Part shown: piece by piece, positions 3,119-31,700 of the stretch
How the letters are laid out: the number at the start of each line of letters is the position of its first letter
How positions within the stretch are numbered: the first letter of the stretch is position 1
Assembly: GCA_018401015.1 (NCBI GenBank)
Contig: JAGYLP010000004.1
Span: 19,307 to 83,306 of the forward strand
Length of the DNA: 64,000 bases
Reading direction: 5' to 3'
Source: Bacteroidales bacterium
GTDB taxonomy: Bacteria; Bacteroidota; Bacteroidia; Bacteroidales; M50B96
The notes under the pieces: generated by a model
Told to the model about the DNA's origin: nothing
Database searches by the model: none
What the model saw: only the letters and a program-made list of their open reading frames with translations
Position numbers and translations under genes: made by a program

Positions 3119-5380
3119 TTATTGCCCAAACCGATAATTCAGATTCAACACAAAGTTTCTTCCGGGTGCAAAAATGGGGTAAGTAGCAGCCGCCACCGAA
3201 CGATTCAAATGCTCGTAGTAATTCTCGTCGAGCAGGTTATTTACTCCAAAACGAATCGAGAGTTGATCGGTCCATTGATAGGCCAGGAACAAATCGATGG
3301 TAAAGAAAGCCGGAGTTTGTGTTTCGCCAAAATCGGCAGCAATTCGGTTCTGATTGGCAACGTATCGAAATTGAATCGAAGGAGAGAAACGTTCCGAGAA
3401 GAGGAATGCTTTTACCTGATATCGGATATCGAAAGGGGCAATTTCCGGCAAGGGTTGTTGTGTTTTCAGATCGATGGCATAGGTATAAGCCCATTGAAGC
3501 TGATGCGAGAAGGATGTAGCCAGTTGGTGCGCCACACTTCCTTCCAATCCGGTTTTAAATGCCTTATCGAGGTTAACCACGCTTCGTACACCCGGGCTGG
3601 TGGGTAAACGAGGGCTTAGAGCCGTGTCGATTTGCGAGGAGATATAGTTTTGCAGGTAGGCTGCAAACAAGTCGATTGTGAACGAAAAATTCTCCGTCGT
3701 GAAAGCCAATTGCGCATCGGCCTGGTAGTTTGTTTCCGGCAACACTTCGGGATTTCCGAGCCATTCATAAGGATCTTGGCCCACCGGTAAGTAATGGGCA
3801 TAGCGCTCGGTTAAACTACCACTGCGCTGAGCTCTTCCAAGCCAAAGTCCGGTTTTCCATTGCGAAGTCCAGCTCTTAACTCCACCCAAACTGACGCTCG
3901 GATTAAAATCCTGCACCTTGTGGGTAGGATGAACCAGTAAAAACTCAACGGAAGGATCGAATAATTCACCGGTATTCCATTCCAAACGACTCGAAATGAC
4001 CCAATCGACCGACCAGCGATTTAGCTGGTACTCGAAAAAGGCGGCAGATTTTTGAATCCTACCATCCTGCCAAACCGGATCGATGAAGGTATTTCCGGCC
4101 ATCGGTCCCATCAGAAAATCGCGCACACGGCTGCCGCTAGCGGTTTCGGTTCGAAAATCAATTCCTGTAAAAAGCTGATTACCGGCCCATTGCCAAACAC
4201 CCTCGGAACGGAAACCATAATTTTGTGTATTAGCCTGAGTTGAAGCATTCAAGGTTCGAGGATCGAGCGATTTTAAACCATTATCCATAAGATGATCGAC
4301 CCAAGAAGCATAGAGCGTTGTATTCCACGATTGGAGGTATTTTCCCGATAAAATCCAATCGTGGCGTGTGTGCATCATCCAGGTTTCGTCGTTGCGCAAA
4401 TCCATGCTCAAGGCAGGGAAATCGGCATCTTTGGCTTTGTTATGAGTAGCAGAAAAACGAAGATGATGGGAGGCACTGAGTTTCAGTCCCAGATTACTTC
4501 CAATACTTAAGCGAGAAAAATCGGCGGGAATCAGTTCTCCGTTGCCGGCGCGGTAATCGTCGCCCTCCGACCAGGAACCAAAAACAGCAAAGTCGTACCA
4601 TTTTCCTCGTAAACCCAATTGGGCCTCACCACGAGGCATGTTTCCATTGGATTCGTAGCCCAAATTGACTCTTCCGTAGCTAGCAATTTTGGAAGCAAAT
4701 CGAGGCGATTCCGTTTTGAAATGGATTGTTCCCCCGAATCCGGTTCCAAAACGGAGCGCATGAGGTCCTTTAAGCACATCGATTCGTTCCATCATATTCG
4801 GAGCCATTTGACTGGTAGGCGGATCCATTCGATTCGGACAAGCTGCAGTAGCACTTTGTGCACCATTCAAAACAATATTCAACTGCTCATATTTGAATCC
4901 ACGAAAAACCACATCGAAACCATAATTGCCGCCCTTTCGAATGCTGTTGAAGGAAGGGATGTCGTTTAACACGGCTGCCGCATCGTGCTCCAAGCGATCG
5001 TTTTGCTCCACCTCCTGCGAACAATGCGGAGCATGAACATTCCGCCGGAGGGCCACCACCGTAACCGGATGAATGCTAAATTCCAATTTGCGACGATAGA
5101 ACACGCCGTTTTGCACCACGTATTCGAGTGCTTCGCCAGCGAGCGACCAGTTGCCATAATCCAAACTGCTTAGCTGCAATTCGTCGTTTAATCCATATTG
5201 AAAATAAATCCTTCCATCCGAATCGGAAATACCCTGTTGCTCACCAATTTGGTAAGCTACTCCAATAATTGGAGACTTGTCGGTTTCGTCGAGGATTTGA
5301 ATTTCGGCATGATTGATTTGAGCCCATGCCGACAGGGCTAATACCAGCCACATGGCTGTTGCCAGAAGTTTTGATACCAT
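3119..5380 (-). CDS. TonB-dependent outer-membrane receptor
   Basis: 753 aa with signal peptide MVSKLLATAMWLVLALSAWAQ and a CarboxypepD_reg-like N-terminus. The plug region reads DVLKGPHALRFGTGFGGTI. The terminal barrel strand is ...FVLNLNYRFGQ. The C-terminal NLLDENYYEHLNR weakly recalls OprC/NosA-type (copper) receptors. Confidence 0.9.
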   Translation of the reverse strand: MVSKLLATAMWLVLALSAWAQINHAEIQILDETDKSPIIGVAYQIGEQQGISDSDGRIYFQYGLNDELQLSSLDYGNWSLAGEALEYVVQNGVFYRRKLEFSIHPVTVVALRRNVHAPHCSQEVEQNDRLEHDAAAVLNDIPSFNSIRKGGNYGFDVVFRGFKYEQLNIVLNGAQSATAACPNRMDPPTSQMAPNMMERIDVLKGPHALRFGTGFGGTIHFKTESPRFASKIASYGRVNLGYESNGNMPRGEAQLGLRGKWYDFAVFGSWSEGDDYRAGNGELIPADFSRLSIGSNLGLKLSASHHLRFSATHNKAKDADFPALSMDLRNDETWMMHTRHDWILSGKYLQSWNTTLYASWVDHLMDNGLKSLDPRTLNASTQANTQNYGFRSEGVWQWAGNQLFTGIDFRTETASGSRVRDFLMGPMAGNTFIDPVWQDGRIQKSAAFFEYQLNRWSVDWVISSRLEWNTGELFDPSVEFLLVHPTHKVQDFNPSVSLGGVKSWTSQWKTGLWLGRAQRSGSLTERYAHYLPVGQDPYEWLGNPEVLPETNYQADAQLAFTTENFSFTIDLFAAYLQNYISSQIDTALSPRLPTSPGVRSVVNLDKAFKTGLEGSVAHQLATSFSHQLQWAYTYAIDLKTQQPLPEIAPFDIRYQVKAFLFSERFSPSIQFRYVANQNRIAADFGETQTPAFFTIDLFLAYQWTDQLSIRFGVNNLLDENYYEHLNRSVAAATYPIFAPGRNFVLNLNYRFGQ

Positions 5381-5554
5381 TGTGTTGCCTGTTTAGTTAG
5401 TTAATTAGTCGAAATATAACAGAAAATCGCAAAGGTTGTTTGATCCCGAGTTATGTTTTTTCTAACCTTAATCCATTTCCATTGAATATCCGAACCAAAT
5501 AGTTATTTCCCTATATTTAGGCTGTTAACTCAATTAAACTTTAATCCACTAACT

Positions 5555-8133: not shown

Positions 8134-9867
8134 CTATACATCCTCCTTCGACGCCAAGGGGTACAACTGCTTGAATGCTTCTTTGGGATTCGTATGAGCA
8201 ACATCCCATACCTGAATTGCACTCAAATCAAATTGTGCAATCACTGGCTCCACGAACAAACGACGAACCGAGAGGATAATCGGTCCGGGATACGACCGAA
8301 GTATTCCCTGCAGGCCTTCACTCCAAGCTTTGCCTTCTACCTCGGCCATTCCTACCTCGTCGACAATAAACACATCGGCCTTTGTTTCGAAATCGGACAA
8401 CAGCTTTTTCCCCACCGATAATCCCTCAGGGTGAAAATAAAAACGCCCAACTGCTTCGCTGCCCTCGATAACTTCGGTTTGTAATAATGGATGTTTGGAA
8501 CCGCTTGCCAAATTAAGCAAATAATAGCCACGGGTTTCCTCGTCTTGCATTGTGCGCAAGGACAAAAATCCAGCAGGTTTTACAGAATGCATTTTACATT
8601 CCTCAACCAGCTCTGCAAGAAAACTTGTTTTACCCTCTGCTTTATCGCCGATTAGCATAAAAATTCGCTGTTGGTGTTGCTGACGGTAAGTATAAAGCAA
8701 TCGATCGGCATGTTCCATTAAAACCTGCACCACTTCGAAGGGCGATTTTAAATAAGTGCGGGCCGACGGGAGAATTTGAAGAACAGACCCAACCGACCGG
8801 AAAGATAATTCGAGAGCCTGATGCAATTGTCGGAACCGCGATTGCTTGAAATAATTGACAATAGTCGGATTGTAGAGCTCTTTCCCGATGGCCGAAAAGC
8901 CGAGAATAATTAAAGCAGCTCGAAAGTTCATTTGAATACCTGCCATCAATCCTCCTTTCCAGCCGCCGCCTCCGGATTGAACCGAACCAAGAATTAAGGC
9001 AGCCAAAAGGGTAATGAGCACGAACCAAATCCAGAATTTTGGTTTGGAAAGCTGGCGCATAGCCGACCGATAATGATGGATCCAATACCAAACGATTAGA
9101 AGTGTAAGCGGAACCCAAACATACCAAGGAGCAAGACTAAAGCTTAGTAATCCGCCAATTAACAAAAAGATGTTCAAGACGAGGCGCACCCGCGAAAATT
9201 CAAACGGACCTCCGTAAGAAGGCAATTGTTCCGTCGTATCGAAGGAAATTGTTCGGAGGGAGCTTCCGGTAAGGCGCTTCCCGGCTCTCATGCCAATGAC
9301 TGCCGCCCAAATCCCACTCAACAAATGAATGACTAACAATACAAATATAGGCAACCACACCAGGTCGGTTGTGATGGCCAATTGTTTTTCGGCCATTTGC
9401 ATCAAATGAGTGTAAATATCGACAATGCCGGCTCCGTAGAAAATGATCAAATTCACCACACGCTGCACCAATACCCACGACATGGCAAGCGCAGCGCCCA
9501 CGAGGTAACCCAAAATATTCTTTCCCAAGATTCGAACGGAAATTTCCAGGAGGAGGGCTTCGGTAAAGATGGCGATCATGGGACCGAAAATAACTGCACT
9601 AGGTGAAGCTGTCTTGAGTATAGCAGTAATCAATCCGGCTCGCCAGAATAATCCATTCTCCTTCCAACGATAGTTCACCGAAATGAGCAGGATAAGTGCA
9701 ATACCGGTTAAGATATTTCCGCTAAATGGAAATTTGACATTGTGTAAAAAACTTCCAATTAAGATTTCGCTGGCTGCCCAGGTTGTTCCCAGCACAGAGG
9801 CCTTTAGCCACTTATCGTTTAAACCTCCTGAGCTATGCTTCACTGATGCAGATTTTTTCGGCAGCAT
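8134..9867 (-). CDS. Fusion protein with an N-terminal polytopic membrane domain and a C-terminal small P-loop NTPase (DUF2478/THEP1-like)
   Basis: 577 aa with multiple hydrophobic helices through about aa 330. The C-terminal ~180 aa carries a Walker A-like GDKAEGKTS and a Walker B FIVDEVG. It overlaps the upstream DUF364 gene by 35 nt. Confidence 0.6.
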   Translation of the reverse strand: MLPKKSASVKHSSGGLNDKWLKASVLGTTWAASEILIGSFLHNVKFPFSGNILTGIALILLISVNYRWKENGLFWRAGLITAILKTASPSAVIFGPMIAIFTEALLLEISVRILGKNILGYLVGAALAMSWVLVQRVVNLIIFYGAGIVDIYTHLMQMAEKQLAITTDLVWLPIFVLLVIHLLSGIWAAVIGMRAGKRLTGSSLRTISFDTTEQLPSYGGPFEFSRVRLVLNIFLLIGGLLSFSLAPWYVWVPLTLLIVWYWIHHYRSAMRQLSKPKFWIWFVLITLLAALILGSVQSGGGGWKGGLMAGIQMNFRAALIILGFSAIGKELYNPTIVNYFKQSRFRQLHQALELSFRSVGSVLQILPSARTYLKSPFEVVQVLMEHADRLLYTYRQQHQQRIFMLIGDKAEGKTSFLAELVEECKMHSVKPAGFLSLRTMQDEETRGYYLLNLASGSKHPLLQTEVIEGSEAVGRFYFHPEGLSVGKKLLSDFETKADVFIVDEVGMAEVEGKAWSEGLQGILRSYPGPIILSVRRLFVEPVIAQFDLSAIQVWDVAHTNPKEAFKQLYPLASKEDV

Positions 9868-10636
9868 ATTTAAAAAGATGATAACCGGCGGCTCCTTGCG
9901 TAATAAGTGGGAAAAGCAAATCGGGTTGGGTTATCCGTGTTCCTCCAACATACCGAATCCCATACTTAAAGAAAACTTCGGGTAACAAGTTACTCGATGG
10001 CCCTACCACCACCGTTTCGGTACCGGGCTGAACAAAGCTCAATAGCTTATCGAAAGTTTTATTGACCAGGGTAAGACCGGTAATTAGCAAAAAATCGGCC
10101 TGAGGAATTATTTCCGGATACCGTTCGGCAGGAACATAATATTTACGATGTTGCGGCTCCAATGCATGTTTATTGAATTCTAAAACACTTAATTCACAGC
10201 CCATTGCATCGCAGCGTTGAATATAAGACTGAAAAGCTCCTACCAAAACGACCCGAATACCCGGCTTAACATCGAGCAAATCGAAAGGATCGGTATTCGA
10301 ATGAACGCGATAGGGCTGGGAAGGAAGTAGGCCACTGGCCAATGCATTGATGGTTGCAATCCGTAGCATTTGAATGCTGGCACTCTCTTTCGAAATCTGC
10401 AGTAATTCCGACACAAAATGACCTTCCATGTGCAAAGGAGTAAAGGCCCCAAAATCACGCTTATCCTTGATGCAATGAATATCGGAATCATCAATGGTGC
10501 TCGATAAGCCTAACCAACCGTTATCGAGTCGCACACCGCAAAGGTGTTTCCCGATAACTACCGAATCCAGTCGAGTTTCCTGGCACAATTTGCCATAATC
10601 CGTTAACAGAATTTCCTTTACTTCGTTAATCAGCAT
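9833..10636 (-). CDS. DUF4213/DUF364-type protein (Rossmann-like, 'putative heavy-metal chelation' family)
   Basis: 267 aa. The pattern is ...GVRLDNGWLGLSST... followed by IRVVLVGAF, ADFLLITGLTLVN and VVVGPS. The family was assigned from remembered motif architecture and was not searched. Confidence 0.6.
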   Translation of the reverse strand: MLINEVKEILLTDYGKLCQETRLDSVVIGKHLCGVRLDNGWLGLSSTIDDSDIHCIKDKRDFGAFTPLHMEGHFVSELLQISKESASIQMLRIATINALASGLLPSQPYRVHSNTDPFDLLDVKPGIRVVLVGAFQSYIQRCDAMGCELSVLEFNKHALEPQHRKYYVPAERYPEIIPQADFLLITGLTLVNKTFDKLLSFVQPGTETVVVGPSSNLLPEVFFKYGIRYVGGTRITQPDLLFPLITQGAAGYHLFKYAAEKICISEA

Positions 10637-11009: not shown

Positions 11010-12161
11010 CTAGTCGATTTCCAAATTCTCGTCGGAAATAATATCGGGCAAAATTACACTGATGGTAGTTCCGACACCTACTTCCGAATGCAGTTTAATG
11101 TCGCCTTTGTAGAGGGCTACCATCTTTTTAACGATGGATAAGCCAAGACCGGAGCCACTGATATTGCGGGTTTGAGCGTTTTTGATACGACTAAACTCCT
11201 GAAACAACTGGGTTTGATCCTCGGCGCTAATGCCTATTCCTGTATCGATTACCTGGATAGTCACCTTATCGCGTTTCCGGTCGAGTACAACCGTTACCTT
11301 CCCTCCATCGCGATTATACTTCACGGCATTGCTAATGAGGTTATTCAGAATAATCTCCATTTCTTCGGAATCGGCAATGAAGTAGAAGGGTTTATCGGTC
11401 GATAATTCCATGTGGAGGTTACGTTGAATAGCCATTGGCTCCATGGTGTGGATGGCCAGGGTGGCTATTTCGGCCAAGTCGACTTTTTTCAGGAAGCGTC
11501 GTTTTTTGCCGGTTTCAATGCGGGTGAGATCGAGCATATCCATAATCAGATTGCGCATACCAGCCATCCGGACGAGCGATCGTTCGATCATTTCCATATA
11601 ATCGTCGAGTTGGTCGCCAACTTGTTTTTCCTTCATGATTCGAAGGTAGCCCTCCACTGCATTGATAGGCGATTTTAGCTCGTGCGACAGAACGGAAAGG
11701 AATTGAAAGCGGATTTGCTTTCCTTCTTCGTTCATGCGCTGGGTCATCCGCTTCAGAAACAGATGCTTGGTTAAATTTTCAATGGCCGATCGCAACTCCT
11801 GAGGTGTAAATGGCTTAGGCACAAAATTGTAAGCTCCATTACGGGTTGCTTTTACCGCTAAATCCAGACTCGCATAACTGGTAATCATCATCACCATCGC
11901 ATCGAGGTTCATGCGCTTAATTTGCTCGAGCAAATCGATTCCTTGTATGCCGGGCAATTTATTGTCGAGCATAATGATATCGACCGTTTCGCGCTCAATA
12001 ATCGCTAAGCCTTCCTCTCCACTGGCTGCCTCTTTTATTTCGAAACCAAAATCTTGGTCCATAAAAGGGAAACCAACCTCATAGTGTTGGAGTACCCGCC
12101 GAATACCACTGCGAATGCCGGGTTCGTCGTCTACAACCAATACCACTAATTTATTTTCCAT
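11010..12161 (-). CDS. Hybrid receiver-histidine kinase (REC-HisKA-HATPase_c)
   Basis: 383 aa. REC: LVVDDEPGIRSG, IIMLDNKLPG, FVPKPF. H-box: SHELKSPINA. N-box: NLISNAVKYN. G-boxes: DTGIGI and GSGLGLSI. Confidence 0.9.
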   Translation of the reverse strand: MENKLVVLVVDDEPGIRSGIRRVLQHYEVGFPFMDQDFGFEIKEAASGEEGLAIIERETVDIIMLDNKLPGIQGIDLLEQIKRMNLDAMVMMITSYASLDLAVKATRNGAYNFVPKPFTPQELRSAIENLTKHLFLKRMTQRMNEEGKQIRFQFLSVLSHELKSPINAVEGYLRIMKEKQVGDQLDDYMEMIERSLVRMAGMRNLIMDMLDLTRIETGKKRRFLKKVDLAEIATLAIHTMEPMAIQRNLHMELSTDKPFYFIADSEEMEIILNNLISNAVKYNRDGGKVTVVLDRKRDKVTIQVIDTGIGISAEDQTQLFQEFSRIKNAQTRNISGSGLGLSIVKKMVALYKGDIKLHSEVGVGTTISVILPDIISDENLEID

Positions 12162-12163
12162 GA

Positions 12164-12568
12164 TTATAACTTTAGGAGTCGATTGATTTCGCGGTGTAAT
12201 TGATCGCTACGGATACCTTTTTCCATAAAAATATCGGCTTTCACCCACGACCGATTCGATTCACGCTCCATTTCGAATTTGATACCGGTGTCGCGGGTAA
12301 CGCTGGTAGCGATTGCTACGGGTACATCGGGATACATTTGTTTGCATTTATAAGCCAACACAAATCCTGCATCCTGAGTCTCCATCATCAAATCCAAAAT
12401 AGCCATATCGGGCTTGGTGGCTTCGAGAATCTCGAGGGCTTCTTTCTTACTCTCGGCGGTGAGCACCTCAAATCCGAAATGACTAATCTGCCATTTCATT
12501 TGGTTCAGGTAATCGATATCGTCATCGACCAATAAAATGGTCTTCTTTTTTAAAGTCTCTGCTGTCAT
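12164..12568 (-). CDS. Stand-alone response-regulator receiver protein
   Basis: ILLVDDD ... KPDMAILDLMMET ... FMEKG. There is no output domain. The track start at 12577 is TTG, with ATG at 12568. Its stop lies 2 nt before the next gene's start. Confidence 0.85.
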   Translation of the reverse strand: MTAETLKKKTILLVDDDIDYLNQMKWQISHFGFEVLTAESKKEALEILEATKPDMAILDLMMETQDAGFVLAYKCKQMYPDVPVAIATSVTRDTGIKFEMERESNRSWVKADIFMEKGIRSDQLHREINRLLKL

Positions 12569-12658
12569 GGCATTCAATGTATTACGATTAAACTAATTGA
12601 TCTTAAATACTGTAGCTCCACAAACCGGAGCATTTTTTAAAATTTATTTCTGATGCGT

Positions 12659-14638
12659 TTACTTAGGCAAATGAATGATAAAATGGGTTCCGGTAGGTCC
12701 TTTCTCCGGTTGATTATTGGTTTCTACTTCAATTTTTCCATGATGCATTTTAATGATGCCATATACTAAGGGCAAACCGAGCCCTGTTCCTTTTCCAATT
12801 CCCTTTGTAGTAAAAAAGGGGGTGAAAATTTTATCCATATTTTCCGGCGAAATACCGGTACCGTTGTCGGATACCCGTATCTCAAAGGTTTCATCGTGCT
12901 CTTTTAAGTGTACGCTTAGCGTTCCTCCGTGTGGCATGGCCTCAATGGCATTTTTTTCCAGATTGGTAAGCACTTGCATCATTTGATCGTAATCGAAAAA
13001 GGCAATGGCACGCTGAACATCGCTCGAAAACTCGACCTGAACATTATCTGGAACAACCACCGATTGAAGACTTTGTTTACAAAATTCAACGAGGGAATAT
13101 TCCGATTTCTGAAGCTGATTCTTTCGAGCAAAATTAAGCAATCCACCTACTATTTTTTTGCAACGGTCGGCTTGTTCAGCAATCAATTCAACATCGTTGC
13201 GGGTTGGATCGTCCTGCGCTAATTCATCGAGCAAAATATTGCTATACATGGTTATTACGCCGAGCGGATTATTGAGCTCGTGAGCAATCCCGGCCGATAG
13301 TTGCCCCATGTTAGCCAATTTCTCCTGATGCTTGAGGGCTCGTTTGGCATCGTCGAGCAAATGATTAGATTGATCCAGTGCACTGAGCGACTGGTGAAGT
13401 TTTTCGATGGCATAGGGTAAGCACATTTCTATTTCGGCTAATCCGTCGATGATGGCCATAGCATGTTTCTCGCAGGTAGAATAGCCGCATGCTCCGCAAT
13501 TGAGATGATCGCTGCTATCGTATTTGCCCATTTCGGCCAACACATGATCGATTCGTTCGCGGGTAGGGGTTTTTGAACGCCGGTCCATGATTTGAAACGA
13601 CTGGCTCATATCGAGTTGCCCGATGAAATCGAGGTCCACTTGCCACTTCGACCAATCCAGGCGGGCGAGCTTCGAGGCTACATAATTTGCTACATGAGCT
13701 TTTCGCTGATAGCGTTTCCCTTGTGGCGACATACCGGGTCCCATGATGCATCCTTCGCAACTTAACAATTCGACATGCCGCGCTTTAATTTCTCCCGAAT
13801 CGAGTGCTTGAATCACCTCGCGAACATTTTGTTTCCCTTCGGCTACAACTACATCGCCCGACAATAAATCGTCGTGCAGCCCCATGGTATGCAACATTCC
13901 TTTACTCACAGGAAATACCGCTCCTTTAGCTGCGTGAGGTGGATCGAAATCGGTTATTTTTCCAGCTTCATAGGTAACCTGGCGTGCGTTAAAAACCTGC
14001 CTTAGTTCCTGAAAAGTGATCACACAATCGACCTCGTTCGATTCAGCCTTCTTGGCAATGCATGGTCCGATGAAAACAACTTTGGGATTCCGAGGAGCAT
14101 ATTTTTCTTTCAAGTAACGCGTCATGGCCACCATTGGAGAGGCCACCCTGGCAAGGCTCGATACTAGTTTAGGGTAATATTGCTCAATGTAGTAAACAAT
14201 GGCCGGACAATCGGATGAGATGAAGATTTCCTGGTCCGATTCACGCTGAAGCTTTTGGTAAGCCTGAGCAACGGCATCGGCTCCAAAGCCGACCTCTACG
14301 GCGAGCTTAAAGCCCAAATCGCGGAGCATGGGTACGAGAGCCCTAGGATCGTCGAACTCGTCGAACTCGGCTGGAAACGAGGGAGCCACGGCGGCAATTA
14401 CAAAGTCGTTTGAATCCAGCATTTCAAGCAACTCGTTGGTATTGGAGACATAAATTTTGGCACCCTGACTGCAAACCTTAACGCAATTTCCACAAGCAAT
14501 GCAGCGTTCGCCAAGAACTTCGGCTTGTCCATTGATGATTTTAATGGCTTTAGCCGGGCACTCACGAACGCAGGTATAGCATACCCTGCATTTGTTCATC
14601 AGTGTTTCCACTACATATTTGCCATTACCGTGACTCAT
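12659..14638 (-). CDS. Soluble sensor histidine kinase with an [FeFe]-hydrogenase-like (H-domain) input module; putative H2/redox sensor
   Basis: 659 aa with no TM segment. It has two Cx2Cx2Cx3C ferredoxin motifs (C17.., C46..). H-cluster-like signatures are SSDCPAI, GPCIAKKAE and ELLSCEGCIMGPG. A Cx2Cx4Cx16C motif spans C381-C406. The HisKA motif is IAHELNNPLG. The HATPase_c domain includes GTGLGLPLV. Confidence 0.85.
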   Translation of the reverse strand: MSHGNGKYVVETLMNKCRVCYTCVRECPAKAIKIINGQAEVLGERCIACGNCVKVCSQGAKIYVSNTNELLEMLDSNDFVIAAVAPSFPAEFDEFDDPRALVPMLRDLGFKLAVEVGFGADAVAQAYQKLQRESDQEIFISSDCPAIVYYIEQYYPKLVSSLARVASPMVAMTRYLKEKYAPRNPKVVFIGPCIAKKAESNEVDCVITFQELRQVFNARQVTYEAGKITDFDPPHAAKGAVFPVSKGMLHTMGLHDDLLSGDVVVAEGKQNVREVIQALDSGEIKARHVELLSCEGCIMGPGMSPQGKRYQRKAHVANYVASKLARLDWSKWQVDLDFIGQLDMSQSFQIMDRRSKTPTRERIDHVLAEMGKYDSSDHLNCGACGYSTCEKHAMAIIDGLAEIEMCLPYAIEKLHQSLSALDQSNHLLDDAKRALKHQEKLANMGQLSAGIAHELNNPLGVITMYSNILLDELAQDDPTRNDVELIAEQADRCKKIVGGLLNFARKNQLQKSEYSLVEFCKQSLQSVVVPDNVQVEFSSDVQRAIAFFDYDQMMQVLTNLEKNAIEAMPHGGTLSVHLKEHDETFEIRVSDNGTGISPENMDKIFTPFFTTKGIGKGTGLGLPLVYGIIKMHHGKIEVETNNQPEKGPTGTHFIIHLPK

Positions 14639-14650
14639 CTTTCTATTCCT

Positions 14651-16378
14651 CTATTTCAAAATATCTTCCCGAATACGATAGCGTGTATGCAATAAGTGAT
14701 GCGCAATTTCACTGTTTGGTTCACCCAAAAAGCTTCGATATAATTCAATCACCTCCGGATTTTTATGCGATACCCGCAAGGATTCTTTCATATCGGCTGA
14801 ATAAATGGTTTGCATACGAGCAGCCAGTGCTTCCGGACTGGCGCCAATTTTTTGTCCGCCGCCTCCAATACATCCACTCGGACAAGCCATTACTTCAACA
14901 AAATGTAAGTCGTTGCGACCGGCTCGAATTTCATCGAGCAAGACTTTGGCATTGCTTATTCCGTTTACCACGGCTACTCCTAGGGTCAATCCATTCACTT
15001 CGACTTTCGCTTCTTTTCGGCCAGCTAAACCACGTAATTCTTTAATTTGGAATTTAATCAGCTCTTCACCGGTTAGTTTCCAATAGGCGGTACGAATCGC
15101 AGCTTCCATTACACCTCCTGTTACACCAAAGAGCTTTCCGGCGGTACTACGTGCACCCAAAGGTGAATCGGTTATTTCCGGCTCCAACTTGTGAATATCG
15201 ACTCCATAAAGCTTGATGAATCGGGCCAGCTCGCGGGTAGTTAAAATCGCATCCACATCTACAATTCCTTTGGAAACCATTTCTTCGCGCTGTGCTTCGA
15301 ATTTTTTTGCTGTACAAGGCATGATCGAAACAGAGTAGATATCTTCCTTCCGCAAATTCATTCTCTCGGCAAAATAGGTTTTTATTACAGCTCCCATCAT
15401 TTGCTGTGGCGATTTACAAGAAGACAACAAAGGGAGCAGGTCGCCGGCAAATTCCTCGGCGTACTTTACCCATCCCGGGCAGCAACTTGTCATGAGGGGT
15501 AATCGTTCATTTTTCTGAATCCGATCGATTAATTCAGTCGATTCTTCCATAATCGTTAAATCGGCTGCAAAGGTGGTGTCGAAGATAAAATCGAATCCCA
15601 ATTTCCGAAGAGCGGCATTCATTACACCATTGATATCCAATCCGGGTTCCATGTTAAACTCTTCGGCCAGCGAAACAGAAATAGAGGGGGCGTACTGCAC
15701 CACTACTACTTTTTTCGGATTGGCCAGGGCATCCTGAATCTCGGCAAAGTGATTTTTTTCGGTTAAAGCTCCGGTTGGACAAACCATGATGCACTGTCCG
15801 CAATTAATGCAACTGGAAACATTCAAGCCTCGATTGTAGGTTGTACTAATAATCGATTGACTACCGCGATTGGCAAAATCGATACAAGCAACACCCATGG
15901 TTTCCTCGCAAACCACAACACATCGTCCGCATAAAATACACTTCGAAGGATCGCGCACAATGGAAGCCGAACTCATATCGAGATGATAATTATTCTTTTC
16001 GCCTCGAACCCGACGGTCGTCAACATGCAGTTCTTCTGCTAAGTCCTGTAGTTCGCAATTTTTGTTTCGAACGCAATACAAACAGTCGTCGGGATGATTC
16101 GACAGCAGCAACTCAACGATGGTTTTTCTCGATTCTGCCACACGCTGCGATTGAGTATCAATGCGCATCCCTTGCTCAACCGGATGAGAGCACGAGGTGA
16201 TGAGCTTACCATTACTTTTATTTTCTACCACACACATCCGGCAGGCTCCGGTTGGGAGTTTATCTTTCATGTGACATAGCGTGGGTATTTTAATCCCAAT
16301 TCGGCTCAGCACATCGAGCAAATATTCTCCGGATTGAACCGGAACTTGTTCTTTATTGATTTCTATCGTGAAGTCCAT
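14651..16378 (-). CDS. hydA: [FeFe]-hydrogenase catalytic subunit HydA (trimeric, NAD(P)H/ferredoxin-linked type)
   Basis: 575 aa with an N-terminal 2Fe-2S domain and 4Fe-4S motifs (CILCGRCVVVC, CINCGQCIMVCP). The canonical H-cluster signatures are TSCCPGW, MPCTAKKFE and EVMACPSGCIGGGGQ. Confidence 0.93.
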   Translation of the reverse strand: MDFTIEINKEQVPVQSGEYLLDVLSRIGIKIPTLCHMKDKLPTGACRMCVVENKSNGKLITSCSHPVEQGMRIDTQSQRVAESRKTIVELLLSNHPDDCLYCVRNKNCELQDLAEELHVDDRRVRGEKNNYHLDMSSASIVRDPSKCILCGRCVVVCEETMGVACIDFANRGSQSIISTTYNRGLNVSSCINCGQCIMVCPTGALTEKNHFAEIQDALANPKKVVVVQYAPSISVSLAEEFNMEPGLDINGVMNAALRKLGFDFIFDTTFAADLTIMEESTELIDRIQKNERLPLMTSCCPGWVKYAEEFAGDLLPLLSSCKSPQQMMGAVIKTYFAERMNLRKEDIYSVSIMPCTAKKFEAQREEMVSKGIVDVDAILTTRELARFIKLYGVDIHKLEPEITDSPLGARSTAGKLFGVTGGVMEAAIRTAYWKLTGEELIKFQIKELRGLAGRKEAKVEVNGLTLGVAVVNGISNAKVLLDEIRAGRNDLHFVEVMACPSGCIGGGGQKIGASPEALAARMQTIYSADMKESLRVSHKNPEVIELYRSFLGEPNSEIAHHLLHTRYRIREDILK

Positions 16379-16396: not shown

Positions 16397-18340
16397 TTAA
16401 AAAATTTCGATAGCATCGAATTTACAAGCCTCCTGACAAGCTCCGCAGGCAATACACTTCTCTTCGATAATGAAATGCGGCGTTTTTTTGGCTCCTATTA
16501 TCGCTTGAGTCGGACATTTTTTCAAACAAACCATACAACCAGTGCATGCTTCGACATTGATTCGGAAGATGCGCAACTCGGTGCAAACTCCTGCGCGGCA
16601 TTTCCGGTCGAAAATGTGCTCTTCGTACTCATCTTTGAACCAACGCAAAGTGCTCAATACGGGGTTTGGAGCAGTCTGTCCCAATCCGCATAAGGAGGTA
16701 TCTTTAATCACCTCGGCTAAACGCTCAAGTTGCATCAAACTTTTTATCCGCTCCAAGGCTTCGTAGCGCTCTTCGTGAACCGGCTTTTTGGTTATAGTTT
16801 CTAATATCTCCAACATCCGCTTTGTTCCCTCGCGACAAGGAATACACTTTCCGCAACTTTCGCGCTGAATGAAGTCCATGAAATATTTTGCCAAGTCCAC
16901 CATGCAAGTGTCTTCGTCCATCACCACCAAACCTCCGGAACCCATCATGGCGCCAACCTTTATCAGCGATTCATAATCGATTTTGATATCCAGATTGGCC
17001 TCGGTAATACAACCTCCCGACGGACCTCCAATTTGCACAGCTTTGAATTTCTTTTTATTGAGAATTCCACCGGAAATGGTGAAAATCACGTCGCGAATGG
17101 TAGTACCCATGGGAATCTCGACCAATCCGGTTAAAGCAACTTTCCCCGACATGGCAAATACTTTTGTTCCTTTCGATGTTTCGGTGCCGATAGAAGCAAA
17201 CCAATCGATTCCTTTAGCTATAATTTCTGGAATATTGGCCAAGGTTTCCACGTTGTTAATAATGGTTGGTTTCTGAAACAATCCGCTTATCGCAGGAAAT
17301 GGCGGACGTGGACGAGGCATTCCGCGTTTACCTTCGATGCTGTGAATAAGCGCTGTTTCTTCGCCGCAAACAAATGCTCCAGCACCCATTTTTACTTTGA
17401 TATCGAAGGATATTCCCGTGCCAAAAATATTTTCTCCCAACAAACCATATTCCCGGGCCTGATCCAGTGCAATTCGTAATCGCTTAATAGCCAGCGGATA
17501 TTCAGCCCGAATATACACATAAGCTATACTGGCTCCGATTCCGTAAGCTGCAATGGCCATTCCTTCGAGCAAGCGATGAGGATCGCCTTCGATAACGGCT
17601 CTATCCATGAATGCACCGGGGTCACCTTCGTCGGCATTGCAAATCAAATATTTCTGTGTGGAATTTTGGGCTAAGGCAAATTTCCATTTTTTACCGGTAG
17701 GGAAACCGCCGCCACCACGACCTCGCAAGCCCGACTTTTCAATCATATCGCACACTTCGGCCGACGTATGCTGACGAATAATGCGCAAGAAACTGGCATA
17801 TCCTCCGGCTGCAATATATTCTTCGATGCTAACCGGATCCAGAATACCGCAGTTCTTCAAAACCAATCGGGTTTGAGGAGCGAAAAAGGGATGCTCGTGC
17901 AAAAACGGAACGGCTAGCCAGCTGCGATTACCCTGATCAAATTGCATTAGTGAAGCAGTATAATCGACTTCGAGGGTAAAGATTTTATCGAGTAATCCAG
18001 CCACCTTTTCTTGTGTTACTTGTTGAAAAGAAATGCGATTATAGCCGGGTAATTGAACATCGAGGATAGGCTCGGCCGAGCACAAACCAATACAACCAAC
18101 CTCGATTACCTGAGCATCGATGGATTGTTGTTCTAAATACGATTTAACAGCAGCTAAGGTTTTGTCGGCTCCTGCGCCTAATCCGCAGGTTCCAGCTCCG
18201 ATATAAATAACGGGCTTGCTTACCTCCTTCCGCAATAAATGCTGAAGCCTTTGCTCATCGAGCTGTACATTATCGTATTTCCCTTTGCTTAAGAGCGTTG
18301 TGAGAAATTCTTTATTGCTTGGGTTTTTCTTCCTGGCCAT
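16397..18340 (-). CDS. hydB: Hydrogenase flavoprotein subunit HydB (NuoF-like)
   Basis: 647 aa with a thioredoxin-like 2Fe-2S N-terminus. FMN/NADH site GRGGGGFPTGKKW and SCGKCIPCREG. Two C-terminal 4Fe-4S motifs: CTGCMVCLKKCP and CIACGACQEACK. Confidence 0.9.
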   Translation of the reverse strand: MARKKNPSNKEFLTTLLSKGKYDNVQLDEQRLQHLLRKEVSKPVIYIGAGTCGLGAGADKTLAAVKSYLEQQSIDAQVIEVGCIGLCSAEPILDVQLPGYNRISFQQVTQEKVAGLLDKIFTLEVDYTASLMQFDQGNRSWLAVPFLHEHPFFAPQTRLVLKNCGILDPVSIEEYIAAGGYASFLRIIRQHTSAEVCDMIEKSGLRGRGGGGFPTGKKWKFALAQNSTQKYLICNADEGDPGAFMDRAVIEGDPHRLLEGMAIAAYGIGASIAYVYIRAEYPLAIKRLRIALDQAREYGLLGENIFGTGISFDIKVKMGAGAFVCGEETALIHSIEGKRGMPRPRPPFPAISGLFQKPTIINNVETLANIPEIIAKGIDWFASIGTETSKGTKVFAMSGKVALTGLVEIPMGTTIRDVIFTISGGILNKKKFKAVQIGGPSGGCITEANLDIKIDYESLIKVGAMMGSGGLVVMDEDTCMVDLAKYFMDFIQRESCGKCIPCREGTKRMLEILETITKKPVHEERYEALERIKSLMQLERLAEVIKDTSLCGLGQTAPNPVLSTLRWFKDEYEEHIFDRKCRAGVCTELRIFRINVEACTGCMVCLKKCPTQAIIGAKKTPHFIIEEKCIACGACQEACKFDAIEIF

Positions 18341-18342
18341 GA

Positions 18343-18807
18343 TTACTCGCTTTCTAAGTTTCTATAATGTTCCAAAATATCATCGATATCGGCGGGTTTC
18401 AGCTTGGCATGAAACTCACCATTGATACTGATTACCGGTGCTAACCCGCAAGCTCCAATGCAGGCTACTACCTCGAGGCTGAACAAGCCATCGCGGGCGG
18501 TAGAACCCGCTTTTATTTTCAATCGCTTTTCCAATTCAGCTTGCACCGTTGAAGAGCCAAGTACGTGGCAGGCTGTCCCACGACAAACCTGTATGTGGTA
18601 CTTACCCTGGGGTTCGAATCGAAACTGATTATAAAAAGTAGCCACCCCAAAGATCTTACTAGTAGGCAGTTGAAGATGCTTGCCCACTTCAACTATGGAA
18701 TCTTCCGATAAATAACCGGCCTGTTCCTGAATTGCCTGAAGAATAGGAATCAGATGTTCCCGCTTTCCGTCGGGGTATTGTTTGAGTATGGTGCTAATGG
18801 AAGCCAT
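18343..18807 (-). CDS. hydC: Hydrogenase 2Fe-2S subunit HydC (NuoE-like)
   Basis: 154 aa with the NuoE-type cluster motifs CRGTACHV ... CIGACGLAP. Its stop lies 2 nt before the hydB start. Confidence 0.9.
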   Translation of the reverse strand: MASISTILKQYPDGKREHLIPILQAIQEQAGYLSEDSIVEVGKHLQLPTSKIFGVATFYNQFRFEPQGKYHIQVCRGTACHVLGSSTVQAELEKRLKIKAGSTARDGLFSLEVVACIGACGLAPVISINGEFHAKLKPADIDDILEHYRNLESE

Positions 18808-18852: not shown

Positions 18853-19353
18853 CTAGTTCTTGAGAATACGGTGAATCTCGGGTAAAAGCTTGTCGGACGA
18901 AACCGGCTTGCGAATGAATCCGTTTACAGGAAAAAATACGCTTTCACCCCGCTCGGTACGATAATCTACTCCGGCATCGCCGGTATCGATATTTTTTAAC
19001 AGAATAACCTCTAAATCGCGGTAGTTCGGATCGTTACGAAACTCACGAGCCATTTCCTGAACACCAGGACGCGTCGTAACCAACACATCAATCGAGGTTT
19101 GCATCAATACCGGGGTACCCCGAAAATGGACATCGTCTTTAATCTCCTTCGCCAATTCAAATCCCTCATAAGGGGTTTCCATCATAACATCTAAGATGGC
19201 TAAGTCGGGTTTCCAGCTTTTTACCAGCTTCATTCCCTCCGATTTGTTCCCGGCCGATAAAACTTCGTAACCTTCGCGCTTTAAAATTGCTTCTACAATG
19301 GTGATGACATCTACATCGTCGTCGACCAATAAAATTTTCTTTTTCGTTTCCAT
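18853..19353 (-). CDS. Stand-alone response-regulator receiver protein with an internal insertion
   Basis: 166 aa: ILLVDDD ... KPDLAILDVMMET ... MQTSI ... (long insert) ... FIRKP. It is a paralogue of the REC at 12164-12568 and the first gene of the hyd module. Confidence 0.85.
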   Translation of the reverse strand: METKKKILLVDDDVDVITIVEAILKREGYEVLSAGNKSEGMKLVKSWKPDLAILDVMMETPYEGFELAKEIKDDVHFRGTPVLMQTSIDVLVTTRPGVQEMAREFRNDPNYRDLEVILLKNIDTGDAGVDYRTERGESVFFPVNGFIRKPVSSDKLLPEIHRILKN

Positions 19354-28820: not shown

Positions 28821-31700
28821 ATGAAAAAAACCACTATCAGAATTCTTTTAATCAGCTTCATAGCGAACATCCTGTTGTTCAATCACTCGATAGGTCAAGT
28901 CATCGACCCATCGGATTTATTCCGCGAGTCGGGAGAATTATACTTAGAAATTGAAGTACCCGACGAAACTAGTTTGATTACAATCAGTCGATCGGTATCG
29001 ATCGATAAAATCTCCACCATAGAAGAAGGCACGCCTGGCTGGATTGTAAAAGCTTATGCCAGTGAAAAAGGATTCAGCGAGAGCGGCATTTCGGCCTTGA
29101 ATTTTACAGTGCTTCCTCATCCGGGATTGAATCCTCAAGCCAAGATGGTTGACTTTGCCGAACATAAAAGCAGCAATTCGTGGGATTATTTCCCCACCTA
29201 TCCTGCTTATGTTGAAATGATGGCCGACTTTGAAACGAACTTTCCTCACCTTTGTGAAATTGTCTCGATTGGCACAACGGTAAATGGTCGCGAAATCCTT
29301 TACGCCAAGCTCACCAATCAACTGAATGATAGCTTGCCGAAGCCTCGATTCAATTACACTTCGACCATGCATGGCGACGAAACCACCGGATATGTATTAA
29401 TGCTTCGCCTTATCGACCATTTCCTGAACGGTTATGGAATCGATAGTACCCTCACTCACATGCTCGACCACATGGAAATTTGGATTAATCCCAATGCAAA
29501 TCCCGATGGGACCTATTTTACCGGCGATAATTCTGTTTCAGGAGCCATTCGCTTCAATGCCAATTATGTCGATATCAATCGGAATTTCCCCAATTTCATC
29601 GCAGGTAATAATCCCGATGGAAATCCTTCGCAGCCCGAAACGATGGCCATGGTGGATTTTGCCGACTCTATATCCTTCGTCATGGGCGCGAATTTTCACG
29701 GTGGCATCGAACTGGCTAATTATCCCTGGGATTCTCAGGCAGCCCTGCATGCCGACGATGAGTGGTGGATCGACATCAGCCGCCAGTATGCGGATTCCTG
29801 TCAGCATTACAGCCCTTTGGATCCCAACTACTTCACCGGCGAGAACAACGGGATAACAAATGGCTTTGCCTGGTACCTGGTATATGGCAGTCGACAAGAT
29901 TTTATGCTTCACACCCACCGGTCCCGAGAATTAACCCTCGAAATATCCGACACCAAGAATCCTCCTGCTTCTACCCTTCCGGCATTTTGGGAATATAATT
30001 ATGTATCGATGATCAATTATATTGAGCAAATGCAATATGGCTTTCACGGTTTTGTAACCGATAGCCTTACAGGTGAGCCCTTGTATGCGAACATTTTCAT
30101 AAACAATCACGATCTGGAAAATTCCGATGTATTCACCGAATTACCTCACGGGAATTATTATCGACCCATTGCACCCGGGAGCTATCAGGTTACATTTTCT
30201 AGCCCCGGCTATCAAAGCAAAATACTCACCATTACCTGCAACCCAAATGAATCACATTTGGTTAATGTAGCCTTAACGATGGTTGCTCCCGAAGTGAATT
30301 TTGGAGTCGATTTAGGTTCATCCAGTTGCTCATCGACCATCACCATGATTAACCTGAGCAATACTACGACCAATAGCACCATCACTTGGTATTTTGGCGA
30401 CGGAACAACCTCAACCGAATGGGAACCAAGCCATACCTATACTGCCAACGGAATGTATGATGTAAGCTTGAGTATTTGCAATGAAATAGGTTGCGATTCC
30501 CTCACCCTACCGGGAGTAGCTATCATAAATCTCCCAGAGGTCCCTGCTCTGAGCGGTACGCAAGCCTGTATCGGAACGACTACCGAAATTACAACCGGCA
30601 CGCCGGTCGAGCTGCTTTGGTATTATCATCCCACCGACACCCTACCCTTTGCCATTGCAAATCCGTTTATTACCGAGCCTATTACAAACGACACCACCTT
30701 GTATGTCGAGGTATCGGTTCCTTCCGACCCAATCGTTGGAGGCAAACTAGACAACAGTGGTTCAGGAGGTTACTTCAATAGCAATGCTTCTCATTTCCTG
30801 ATTTTCGATTGTTATGAACCGGTTATCTTGAAAAATGTAACCGTATATTCCAATGCCAATGGCGACCGTGAGATTCTGCTACGCGATGCGAGTGGTTCGA
30901 TTCTAGCCTCAACCACTGTTTTTCTAACCGATACCGGAGAACACATCGTTCCTTTAAATTTTGAAATTCCTGTTGGCACGAACTTGCAGTTAGTGGGTCC
31001 AACCTTCCCCGGTTTATTTCGGACCGATAATGCACAGGATATTGATTATCCTTACAACCTCGATGGTAAAATTAGCATCAAGGCAGGTAGTGCAAACAGT
31101 AATCCGACCGGTTACTATTATTTCTTCTATCGCTGGGAAATTCAAGGCGACGATTGCCGCAGCTTTAGGGAAGAAGTAGTTATCGAGGCACAGGAAAGCG
31201 CACCAGAAGCGAGTTTTACTTACACGGTTAATCAGAATGAAGTCAGTTTTGCCTACACCGGGACCGAGGCCGACATCTTCTTATGGGTTTTTGGTGATGG
31301 AGCCACTTCAATCGAACCCAATCCGGTGCATACCTACACCAGCGACGGCAACTTTTCGGTGACACTTTTGGTTGGAAATGCTTGTGGCGAAGACAACACT
31401 GCTGAGGAAATTCTGATTGAACCAAATCGAATCGTGGAAGAGAGTGAAGTAGAATGGATGCTCTATCCGAATCCCGCCAAAGGCCTACTTCGTGTTCGCT
31501 TACCGGCCATTTCTGGCAACCTGAGCCTTGAGCTTATCAATTATCAAGGAAAACTGATTCATAGCAAGTTGATTCAATTGGCCAATTACTCAACGGAGGT
31601 TGCAATCGACCTATCGAATTATCCTGCCGGAATTTATCAAGTACAGCTCATTTCAGATGAATTTTGGTCGGCTAAAAAATTAATTCTCCTTCGAGAATAA
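28821..31700 (+). CDS. Secreted M14 zinc carboxypeptidase with PKD domains and a T9SS C-terminal sorting domain
   Basis: 959 aa. M14 catalytic set: MHGDETTG (HxxE), NRNF, ANFHGG, TLEISD. PKD motifs: WYFGDGTTS..HTYTANGMYDV and WVFGDGATS..HTYTSDGNFSV. The C-terminus LYPNPAKGLLRVRL...GIYQVQLISD is Por_Secre_tail-like. Confidence 0.88.
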   Translation: MKKTTIRILLISFIANILLFNHSIGQVIDPSDLFRESGELYLEIEVPDETSLITISRSVSIDKISTIEEGTPGWIVKAYASEKGFSESGISALNFTVLPHPGLNPQAKMVDFAEHKSSNSWDYFPTYPAYVEMMADFETNFPHLCEIVSIGTTVNGREILYAKLTNQLNDSLPKPRFNYTSTMHGDETTGYVLMLRLIDHFLNGYGIDSTLTHMLDHMEIWINPNANPDGTYFTGDNSVSGAIRFNANYVDINRNFPNFIAGNNPDGNPSQPETMAMVDFADSISFVMGANFHGGIELANYPWDSQAALHADDEWWIDISRQYADSCQHYSPLDPNYFTGENNGITNGFAWYLVYGSRQDFMLHTHRSRELTLEISDTKNPPASTLPAFWEYNYVSMINYIEQMQYGFHGFVTDSLTGEPLYANIFINNHDLENSDVFTELPHGNYYRPIAPGSYQVTFSSPGYQSKILTITCNPNESHLVNVALTMVAPEVNFGVDLGSSSCSSTITMINLSNTTTNSTITWYFGDGTTSTEWEPSHTYTANGMYDVSLSICNEIGCDSLTLPGVAIINLPEVPALSGTQACIGTTTEITTGTPVELLWYYHPTDTLPFAIANPFITEPITNDTTLYVEVSVPSDPIVGGKLDNSGSGGYFNSNASHFLIFDCYEPVILKNVTVYSNANGDREILLRDASGSILASTTVFLTDTGEHIVPLNFEIPVGTNLQLVGPTFPGLFRTDNAQDIDYPYNLDGKISIKAGSANSNPTGYYYFFYRWEIQGDDCRSFREEVVIEAQESAPEASFTYTVNQNEVSFAYTGTEADIFLWVFGDGATSIEPNPVHTYTSDGNFSVTLLVGNACGEDNTAEEILIEPNRIVEESEVEWMLYPNPAKGLLRVRLPAISGNLSLELINYQGKLIHSKLIQLANYSTEVAIDLSNYPAGIYQVQLISDEFWSAKKLILLRE

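Follow-up and report, generated by a model that had tools for sequence, protein, structure and literature searches.

A histidine kinase with a group C-type [FeFe]-hydrogenase input module, a putative H2 sensor encoded directly behind hydABC in a Bacteroidales genome

Histidine kinases linked to [FeFe]-hydrogenases are already catalogued: HydDB defines a group C1, "histidine kinase-linked (putative)" (PMC5037454), a Petrimonas genome paper describes such a gene near hnd genes (PMC7768429), and gut surveys count C1 genes routinely. Whether [FeFe]-hydrogenases of groups C and D truly sense H2, and how they signal, is unsettled. The two characterized enzymes, TmHydS from Thermotoga maritima (group C) and TamHydS from Thermoanaerobacter mathranii (group D/M2e), both hold an H-cluster, and their reaction with H2 is slow (PMC8163306, PMC10055695); neither comes with an assayable output. 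Here we analyze a 64,000-nucleotide stretch of a Bacteroidales bacterium (contig JAGYLP010000004.1, positions 19,307 to 83,306, referred to below as the window) in which the gene directly behind hydABC encodes a histidine kinase fused to a hydrogenase-like domain (the sensor). The protein is one more uncultured example of the catalogued class. We think it probable that it is a soluble histidine kinase with a group C-type (HydDB C1-like) [FeFe]-hydrogenase input that responds to H2 and adjusts the cotranscribed HydABC hydrogenase, which supports the core of an earlier, sequence-only reading of this DNA as a putative group C-type H2 sensor. That reading was right that the fused kinase is biochemically uncharacterized, in that we found no biochemical study of a member in the literature searched, but the class itself, with its Petrimonas example, was already known.

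The sensor open reading frame (ORF) starts with ATG and encodes 659 amino acids on the minus strand, which the sequence-only reading had left unstated. As it had claimed, there is no transmembrane-like segment (the highest Kyte-Doolittle mean over 19 residues is 1.33), and the domain order and quoted motifs were found at the residues it gave. Pfam agrees, with a Fer4 dicluster at residues 15 to 60 (Fer4_10/Fer4_9, E of ~6e-07), Fe_hyd_lg_C at 80 to 301 (PF02906, E of 7.6e-46), FeS at 379 to 408 (PF04060, E of 4.6e-10), HisKA at 444 to 507 (PF00512, E of 4.9e-14), and HATPase_c at 549 to 658 (PF02518, E of 2e-25). The gene and its parts are as follows.

12659 to 14638, minus: sensor histidine kinase with hydrogenase-like input, whole ORF, 659 amino acids (ORF and Pfam; the 120 closest full-length homologues are alike)
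14453 to 14611, minus: N-terminal 2x[4Fe-4S] ferredoxin domain, residues 10 to 62 (Fer4 families; 8/8 Cys, at 17, 20, 23, 27, 46, 49, 52, and 56, invariant in 121 sequences)
13727 to 14401, minus: hydrogenase-like domain (H-domain), residues 80 to 304, ligands Cys 144, 193, 294, and 297 (Pfam, hhalign, and Foldseek)
13415 to 13513, minus: C-terminal Fe-S domain, Cx2Cx4Cx16C, residues 376 to 408, Cys 381, 384, 389, and 406 (PF04060)
13310 to 13414, minus: signaling helix/coiled-coil linker, residues 409 to 443, from C406 to the DHp helix (AlphaFold model and spacing)
13118 to 13309, minus: HisKA/DHp domain with phospho-acceptor H453 (PF00512; H453-E-x-N-N-P invariant)
12665 to 12994, minus: HATPase_c catalytic domain with N, G1, F, and G2 boxes intact (PF02518)

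Located directly in the protein, the motifs are C17/20/23/27-P28 and C46/49/52/56 in the ferredoxin part; SSDC144P, GPC193IAKKAE, and ELLSC294EGC297IMGPGM in the H-domain; C381/384/389/406, with x2, x4, x16 spacing; and IAH453ELNNP in the kinase. Judged by its motifs, the kinase part belongs to the HisKA class, with a DHp plus HATPase_c unit that carries the H-box His together with the N, G1, F, and G2 boxes. These boxes are invariant in the family alignment (H453; N559 and N563; D591-x-G-x-G, that is, D591, G593, and G595; F608; and G617/619/621), and the closest solved kinase is ZraS (E of 2e-32). No PAS domain was matched by Pfam in the sensor at E<0.01. The kinase is presumably dimeric.

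The hydrogenase character of the input was examined by profile-profile alignment (hhalign) of 76 sensor-family members with seven HydA orthologues; the numbering of the window HydA equals that of CpI at the motifs. The two families aligned over 294 columns with a probability of 99.9% and an E value of 1.3e-33, placing C144, C193, C294, and C297 on the CpI H-cluster ligands C300, C355, C499, and C503. Several other pocket residues are kept, namely A85-P86-S87 (A230-P231-S232), S167-P168 (S323-P324), K196 (K358), E199 (E361), and F242 (F417), while D143 stands at C299, G191 at M353, L292 at M497, and M248 at the V423 position. By this alignment, the sensor retains all four ligands and most residues in contact with the [2Fe] subsite. 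Aligning by eye, the sequence-only reading had also found the four Cys retained, but it missed a deletion in the third motif: between its last two ligands, the sensor has C-E-G-C (a C-x2-C spacing), one residue less than the C-P-S-G-C (C-x3-C) of HydA. Its word "complete" for the H-domain fits the ligands and pocket residues that map but is too strong for a domain whose C499-C503 loop is short and whose binding of [2Fe] is predicted only. The whole H-domain is ~60 residues shorter than that of HydA, mainly between motifs two and three. The fold agrees with the alignment: an AlphaFold2 model built on the 76-sequence alignment, a check that the sequence-only reading had suggested, has pLDDT values of 80 to 96 over the sensor module and matches the solved [FeFe]-hydrogenases DdH, CbA5H, HydABC, and CpI in Foldseek over ~410 to 440 columns (E of ~1e-19 to 1e-20).

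The group A proton path is gone from the sensor. In the same alignment, E279 falls within a deletion, and E282, R286, and S319 are replaced by A126, L130, and A163. The three pocket substitutions that the sequence-only reading took to fit a slow, sensory enzyme (D143, G191, and L292) are real, but the idea that Asp means a slow enzyme was dropped, because a C299D change in CpI and HydA1 keeps activity. It is the sole substitution that retains 30 to 80% of H2 release in these enzymes; in CpI C299D the carboxylate hydrogen-bonds the bridgehead amine, and the C169D variant takes up very little H2 (PMC6226526). The better argument for slow turnover is that E279, E282, R286, and S319 are missing. 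The C299 position in group C holds Ala in ~43%, Cys in 17%, Pro in ~10%, and Ser in ~10% of sequences (PMC10055695), and it was likewise variable in the relatives surveyed here. Because the position varies across group C, the invariant Asp is a feature of this Bacteroidota clade. D143 may act as a terminal base, since the path does not continue beyond it.

A word-indexed protein search with the sensor yielded 7776 proteins at E <= 1e-10, of which the best 120 are all ~660 amino acids long, 56 to 73% identical, and the same in architecture; every taxonomic label given among them is a Bacteroidota lineage (Bacteroidales, Bacteroidetes, or Saprospiraceae). The fused-sensor architecture is not rare. 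Invariant in 121 sequences are all 16 cluster Cys, D143, G191, K196, L292, and H453. A scan of genome contigs with the sensor protein found one near-identical copy, in an "uncultured Bacteroidetes" metagenome-assembled genome, and one 54% relative, with nothing more. At residue 293 (window positions 13760 to 13762, minus strand), 113 of the 121 family members have Cys ("LLCCEGC") and the window protein has Ser. With C297, a Cys at residue 293 would again be spaced as C-x3-C, so that the ligands could take either of two registers in most relatives but just one in the window protein.

Three other identities were considered and rejected. Membership in catalytic group A was excluded by SSDCP, GPC, and ELLSC-EGC in place of TSCCP, MPC, and ExMxCxxGC and by the missing proton path, and the sensor scored far under the cutoffs of the NCBIfam group A and B models (93 versus 406 and 175 versus 450). 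Group D (M2e, the TamHydS type) was excluded by G191, which is not Ser/Thr at M353, and by M248, which is not Glu at V423 (criteria from PMC8163306 and PMC10407848). The sequence-only reading had also named a grouping with Nar1/Narf-like proteins as an outcome that would undo it; such an identity was set aside, as the architecture differs, Nar1-like proteins being eukaryotic-type H-domain proteins that have no accessory ferredoxin, FeS, or kinase domain, and as the nearest relatives are Fer4-H-domain-FeS proteins of the HydS type, with the 150 closest cluster representatives aligning over that module, in a comparison whose tree had no labeled Nar1 references.

The sensor has the traits by which group C is recognized. 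Its chain contains two ferredoxin motifs, an H-domain with four Cys ligands (the loop one residue short), and the Cx2Cx4Cx16C domain; its pocket has a non-Cys residue (D143), a small residue at M353 (G191), and a non-Met residue (L292), with no proton path (frequencies from PMC10055695); and the kinase is in the same chain, with hydCBA directly upstream both in the window and in six related loci. Several authors also expect a PAS domain, which the sensor lacks, PAS being a trait of the M2f/C3 type and not of all HydDB C subgroups. From these sequence traits, we infer the label C1 rather than C3.

Like HydDB C1 proteins such as Petrimonas mucosa ING2E5A_0849, encoded near hnd, the sensor has a putative sensory role, a Fer4-H-domain-FeS core, histidine kinase signaling, an association with group A3 operons, and a Bacteroidota host (PMC5037454, PMC7768429, PMC11406978); the literature on C1 treats the class by annotation only, and we did not find the fused, PAS-less kinase described there. 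TmHydS shares with it two N-terminal [4Fe-4S] clusters, a compact H-domain, the Cx2Cx4Cx16C domain, Gly at M353, nonconserved C299 and M497, the absence of a group A proton path, and a location with bifurcating HydABC. However, TmHydS ends in a PAS domain, has no kinase, and carries Ala at C299 and Ser at M497, whereas the window protein has Asp and Leu at these positions, has no PAS domain, and continues through a direct coiled coil to HisKA. The PAS-type relatives surveyed have a C-x3-C third motif, in contrast to the C-x2-C of the window protein's clade.

TamHydS resembles the sensor in having no PAS domain, Leu at M497, a C-terminal [4Fe-4S] domain, and a putative sensory role beside an A3 hydrogenase, with a kinase-like gene nearby (PMC8163306), but the kinase-like protein is the product of a separate gene. 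Group D enzymes further differ in having Ser/Thr at M353 and an alternative, Glu-based proton path (E252 at V423), where the window protein has Gly191 and Met248. More remote is the [NiFe] pair of HoxBC and the kinase HoxJ (group 2b, Cupriavidus/Ralstonia), which follows the same logic: a hydrogenase of low activity signals H2 to a histidine kinase, and the kinase controls hydrogenase genes (PMC5037454; see also PMC5665086). In that pair, the metal site and fold are unrelated and separate polypeptides are joined through PAS, whereas the window system is one chain.

The genes around the sensor link it to a catalytic hydrogenase and to phosphotransfer partners. Pfam and the gene positions confirmed that the sensor lies directly behind hydABC and has three neighboring receiver (REC) domains, as the sequence-only reading had said.

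18853 to 19353, minus: stand-alone receiver at the operon head, 166 amino acids (Response_reg)
18343 to 18807, minus: hydC, NuoE-like [2Fe-2S] subunit (2Fe-2S_thioredx, E of 4.5e-51)
16397 to 18340, minus: hydB, NuoF-like flavoprotein subunit (Complex1_51K, NADH_4Fe-4S, Fer4)
14651 to 16378, minus: hydA, catalytic subunit of an NADH-dependent/bifurcating-type [FeFe]-hydrogenase (NF040763 and Pfam)
12164 to 12577, minus: stand-alone receiver directly after the sensor, 137 amino acids (Response_reg; same place in 6/6 related loci)
11010 to 12161, minus: REC-HisKA-HATPase_c hybrid, a receiver-controlled second kinase, 383 amino acids (Pfam)

HydA matches the NCBIfam group A6 model NF040763 with 799 bits against a cutoff of 765, and its motifs are TSCCPGW, MPCTAKKFE, and EVMACPSGCIGGGGQ; judged by such protein models, the hydC-hydB-hydA operon is of the group A3/A6 type. 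The hydA stop codon lies 12 nucleotides ahead of the sensor start, and a terminator scan found no convincing minus-strand terminator between the two. A sigma70 promoter scan of the operon gave promoter-like sites not above shuffles, Bacteroidota promoters being outside its model, and an Rfam scan found no RNA family in the window. The order hydC-hydB-hydA-sensor-REC recurs in 6/6 related Bacteroidota loci examined, and the REC-kinase hybrid comes next in five of them, the contig of the sixth (L002) ending before that point. Several related loci have an extra receiver upstream, and in some the maturase genes hydG and hydE, or Rex, lie downstream of the signaling block. No hydE, hydF, or hydG was found in the 64-kb window.

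The two stand-alone receivers of the window are paralogues (32% identity, E of 8e-23). Both have an "AILD[VL]MMET" motif and a shared insertion and match only the first ~85 of the 111 Pfam REC positions, and the upstream one (18853 to 19353) has a further insertion of ~35 residues. They may form a specialized receiver subfamily tied to the sensor system. Downstream of the signaling genes, after a 374-nucleotide gap, the window has a DUF4213/DUF364 "putative heavy-metal chelation" gene (9833 to 10636, minus), which overlaps by 35 nucleotides a gene for a 577-amino-acid protein (8134 to 9867, minus) with a long hydrophobic N-terminal stretch (by eye) and a C-terminal NTPase_1 domain. Its position is that of hydG/hydE or Rex in related genomes: the sensor-REC-REC/kinase block is followed by Rex (Put_DNA-bind_N plus CoA_binding), by the radical-SAM maturases HydE and HydG (the latter with a BATS domain), or by both, at 13598 to 15713 of locus L005, 13520 to 16108 of L006, and 13639 to 14259 of L009.

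The 12-nucleotide gap to hydA and the strictly kept adjacency would also suit an accessory HydABC subunit, slowly catalytic or regulatory through protein contact, in which the kinase part is auxiliary and serves as a phosphatase or scaffold. Group C3 proteins have been named the "T" subunit of BfuABC subtypes IV and V (PMC11406978), and Asp at the C299 position can sustain turnover in group A enzymes (PMC6226526). We nonetheless regard this role as less likely, and indeed improbable. The kinase boxes and phospho-His are invariant, two cognate-looking receiver genes follow in the loci that extend far enough, the group A proton path is absent, and elsewhere the module is fused to transcription activators and cyclic di-GMP enzymes, which fits signaling and not catalysis. 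Also less likely, and in our view very improbable, is a sensor of O2, oxidants, or iron availability that uses labile Fe-S clusters to shut down expression of the O2-sensitive hydrogenase. Four O2-labile clusters in one soluble kinase and the unusual O2 reactivity of TamHydS (PMC8163306) are in keeping with such a role, but invariant H-cluster pocket residues and D143 would then be needless, and the seven compared loci, the window included, show no specific link to oxidative-stress genes.

A sensory role is supported by the way in which the input module is reused. When residues 1 to 420 were searched against 1.84 billion cluster representatives, 845 clusters (50% identity) matched at E<1e-30. 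The best 150 clusters were typed, 10 representatives by Pfam and the remainder by phmmer against known domain segments. A kinase like that of the window sensor was present in 45, and the other partners were HisKA_3/HATPase, sigma54 AAA+ with a helix-turn-helix, GGDEF, GGDEF with HD-GYP, PAS with sigma54, and PAS alone. A single input serving so many kinds of output is typical of a sensory domain, which is how we interpret the module.

The third motif splits these relatives into 82 with C-x2-C and 65 with C-x3-C. All but one of the former (81/82) fall within a single neighbor-joining clade of 84, and it is this type that carries the direct fusions (40 histidine kinase, 13 sigma54, and 4 GGDEF), whereas 55/65 of the C-x3-C type are PAS-only proteins of the HydS kind. 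In the tree, the window protein lies in the clade of directly fused sensors, apart from the PAS-only HydS-type proteins. In an alignment of 133 diverse relatives, no columns are invariant except those of four Cys and one Gly (G385), all in the C-terminal Fe-S domain. The core also occurs in locus L009, where a second hydrogenase-like protein (3512 to 5383, minus; 623 amino acids; Fer4-H-domain-FeS core; transcribed divergently from hydC) adjoins a GAF-domain protein (1079 to 2998). Similar representatives of ~620 amino acids (P0155, P0178, and P0184) have Ser or Thr, not Gly, ahead of the second-motif Cys.

The connection between the Fe-S domain and the kinase is short and of fixed length. Only 47 residues, helical in character, separate C406 from H453; in the AlphaFold model, a helix (407 to 434) starts right after the last ligand, C406, and is followed by the DHp helix (444 to 472) with H453. 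All close relatives (122/122) have a distance of 47 residues. Among the distant direct fusions, values of 47 (14 sequences), 40 (4), 54 (4), 33 (2), and 68 (1) occur, so that 25/28 equal 47 ± 7n, a count taken over related sequences that are not independent samples. Such a heptad-locked linker is what a coiled-coil signaling helix predicts. In the literature searched, we found no description of three of these details, namely the clade with C-x2-C, the invariance of the Asp, and the locking of the linker to heptads.

We propose the following mechanism, in which H2 is the likely signal. The input module would combine a pair of ferredoxin-type [4Fe-4S] clusters with an H-cluster site and a [4Fe-4S] domain at its C-terminal end. 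H2 would arrive at the H-cluster and be split there, and D143, at the position of the group A proton-relay Cys, could accept a proton from the bridgehead amine. With the rest of the group A proton path missing, turnover would be slow and the reduced state persistent. The redox or conformational state of the H-domain would be relayed through the rigid C-terminal Fe-S domain, and the fixed-register coiled-coil helix from ligand C406 to the DHp helix with H453 would carry the signal onward and shift the autokinase/phosphatase balance in one direction or the other. The phosphoryl group would pass to the adjacent stand-alone receiver or receivers and/or to the REC domain of the REC-kinase hybrid encoded by the next gene, with a presumed relay onward to a regulator encoded outside the window. 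In this way, the HydABC hydrogenase would be tuned to the H2 level.

Several points weigh against this proposal. In the kinase-fused clade, [2Fe] binding and the H2 response are predictions from sequence. The C-x2-C contraction is absent from group A and from the PAS-type HydS relatives surveyed. H-cluster-like motifs persist in Nar1-type proteins, which have no [2Fe] site, and so conserved motifs are no proof of the cofactor. A survey of Hydrogenedentota could "hardly" recognize H-cluster motifs in C1 enzymes (PMC11406978). The C-terminal TamHydS cluster does not become reduced under 1 atm H2, and the 2026 study that reported this speaks against the favored model of a redox change at that cluster (PMC13104023). 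Because the TamHydS cluster stays unreduced, signaling by redox change of the C-terminal cluster is doubtful, and by analogy the likelier role for the cluster is that of a structural coupler, not of a redox switch. On the output side, no DNA-binding response regulator is encoded in the 64-kb window, and the relatedness of the sequences tempers the heptad count.

Some of the same evidence could point to a redox sensor, which is the main rival explanation. The module would then hold only [4Fe-4S] clusters, with the [2Fe] subsite absent or idle, and the kinase would answer the oxidation state of the clusters, reporting on the ferredoxin or NADH pool that feeds HydABC. Fe-S-based redox-sensing kinases exist, and a module of four clusters whose entry domain resembles ferredoxin would be suited to exchanging electrons with ferredoxin. 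The contraction at the [2Fe]-anchoring site, the divergent motifs, and the published doubt over H-cluster motifs in C1 enzymes (PMC11406978) also favor it. We consider it unlikely, however, since the family keeps, without variation, positions whose contacts in group A are limited to the [2Fe] subsite and its CN ligands (K196, A85-P86-S87, S167-P168, F242, and the amine-facing D143), PAS-type relatives bind an H-cluster, and hydG and hydE lie directly downstream in relatives. Moreover, the gene cluster of some genomes also encodes Rex, whose dedicated role is NADH sensing, and this argues that the sensor module reads something else.

Within the H2-sensing interpretation, we tentatively suggest, at less than even confidence, that the kinase-fused clade forms an H2 sensor type of its own and is more than a HydS protein with a kinase attached. 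Its members would anchor [2Fe] through C-x2-C, carry (in Bacteroidota) an invariant, amine-facing Asp with no onward path, and dispense with PAS. H2 splitting would work as a near-stoichiometric "latch," transmitted mechanically through the cluster domain and the register-locked coiled coil and then through a kinase-REC-(REC-kinase) relay with no DNA-binding partner in the cluster.

Two features elsewhere in the window were recorded. The uvrB gene (48168 to 50175, plus) is split into overlapping ORFs in different frames, 48168 to 48512 (the N-terminal 114 amino acids, with GSGKT) and 48466 to 50175, reflecting either a frameshift or an assembly error near 48450 to 48510. Two large secreted proteins, encoded at 28821 to 31700 and 44564 to 48016 (plus), carry C-terminal sorting domains of the type IX secretion system (T9SS); one is an M14 carboxypeptidase that contains PKD repeats, the other has lamin-tail domains, and both are consistent with a Bacteroidota origin.

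A fused kinase would give putative sensory [FeFe]-hydrogenases a simple biochemical readout, namely its autophosphorylation and the passage of the phosphoryl group to the two neighboring receivers, and the register-locked linker and invariant Asp are ready targets for mutagenesis. Because the family is common in Bacteroidota and adjoins bifurcating HydABC, it is a candidate switch for H2 output in anaerobic digesters and gut communities. If the kinase-fused clade does prove to be a distinct sensor, it would be the first [FeFe] system in which H2 sensing can be read directly as protein phosphorylation.

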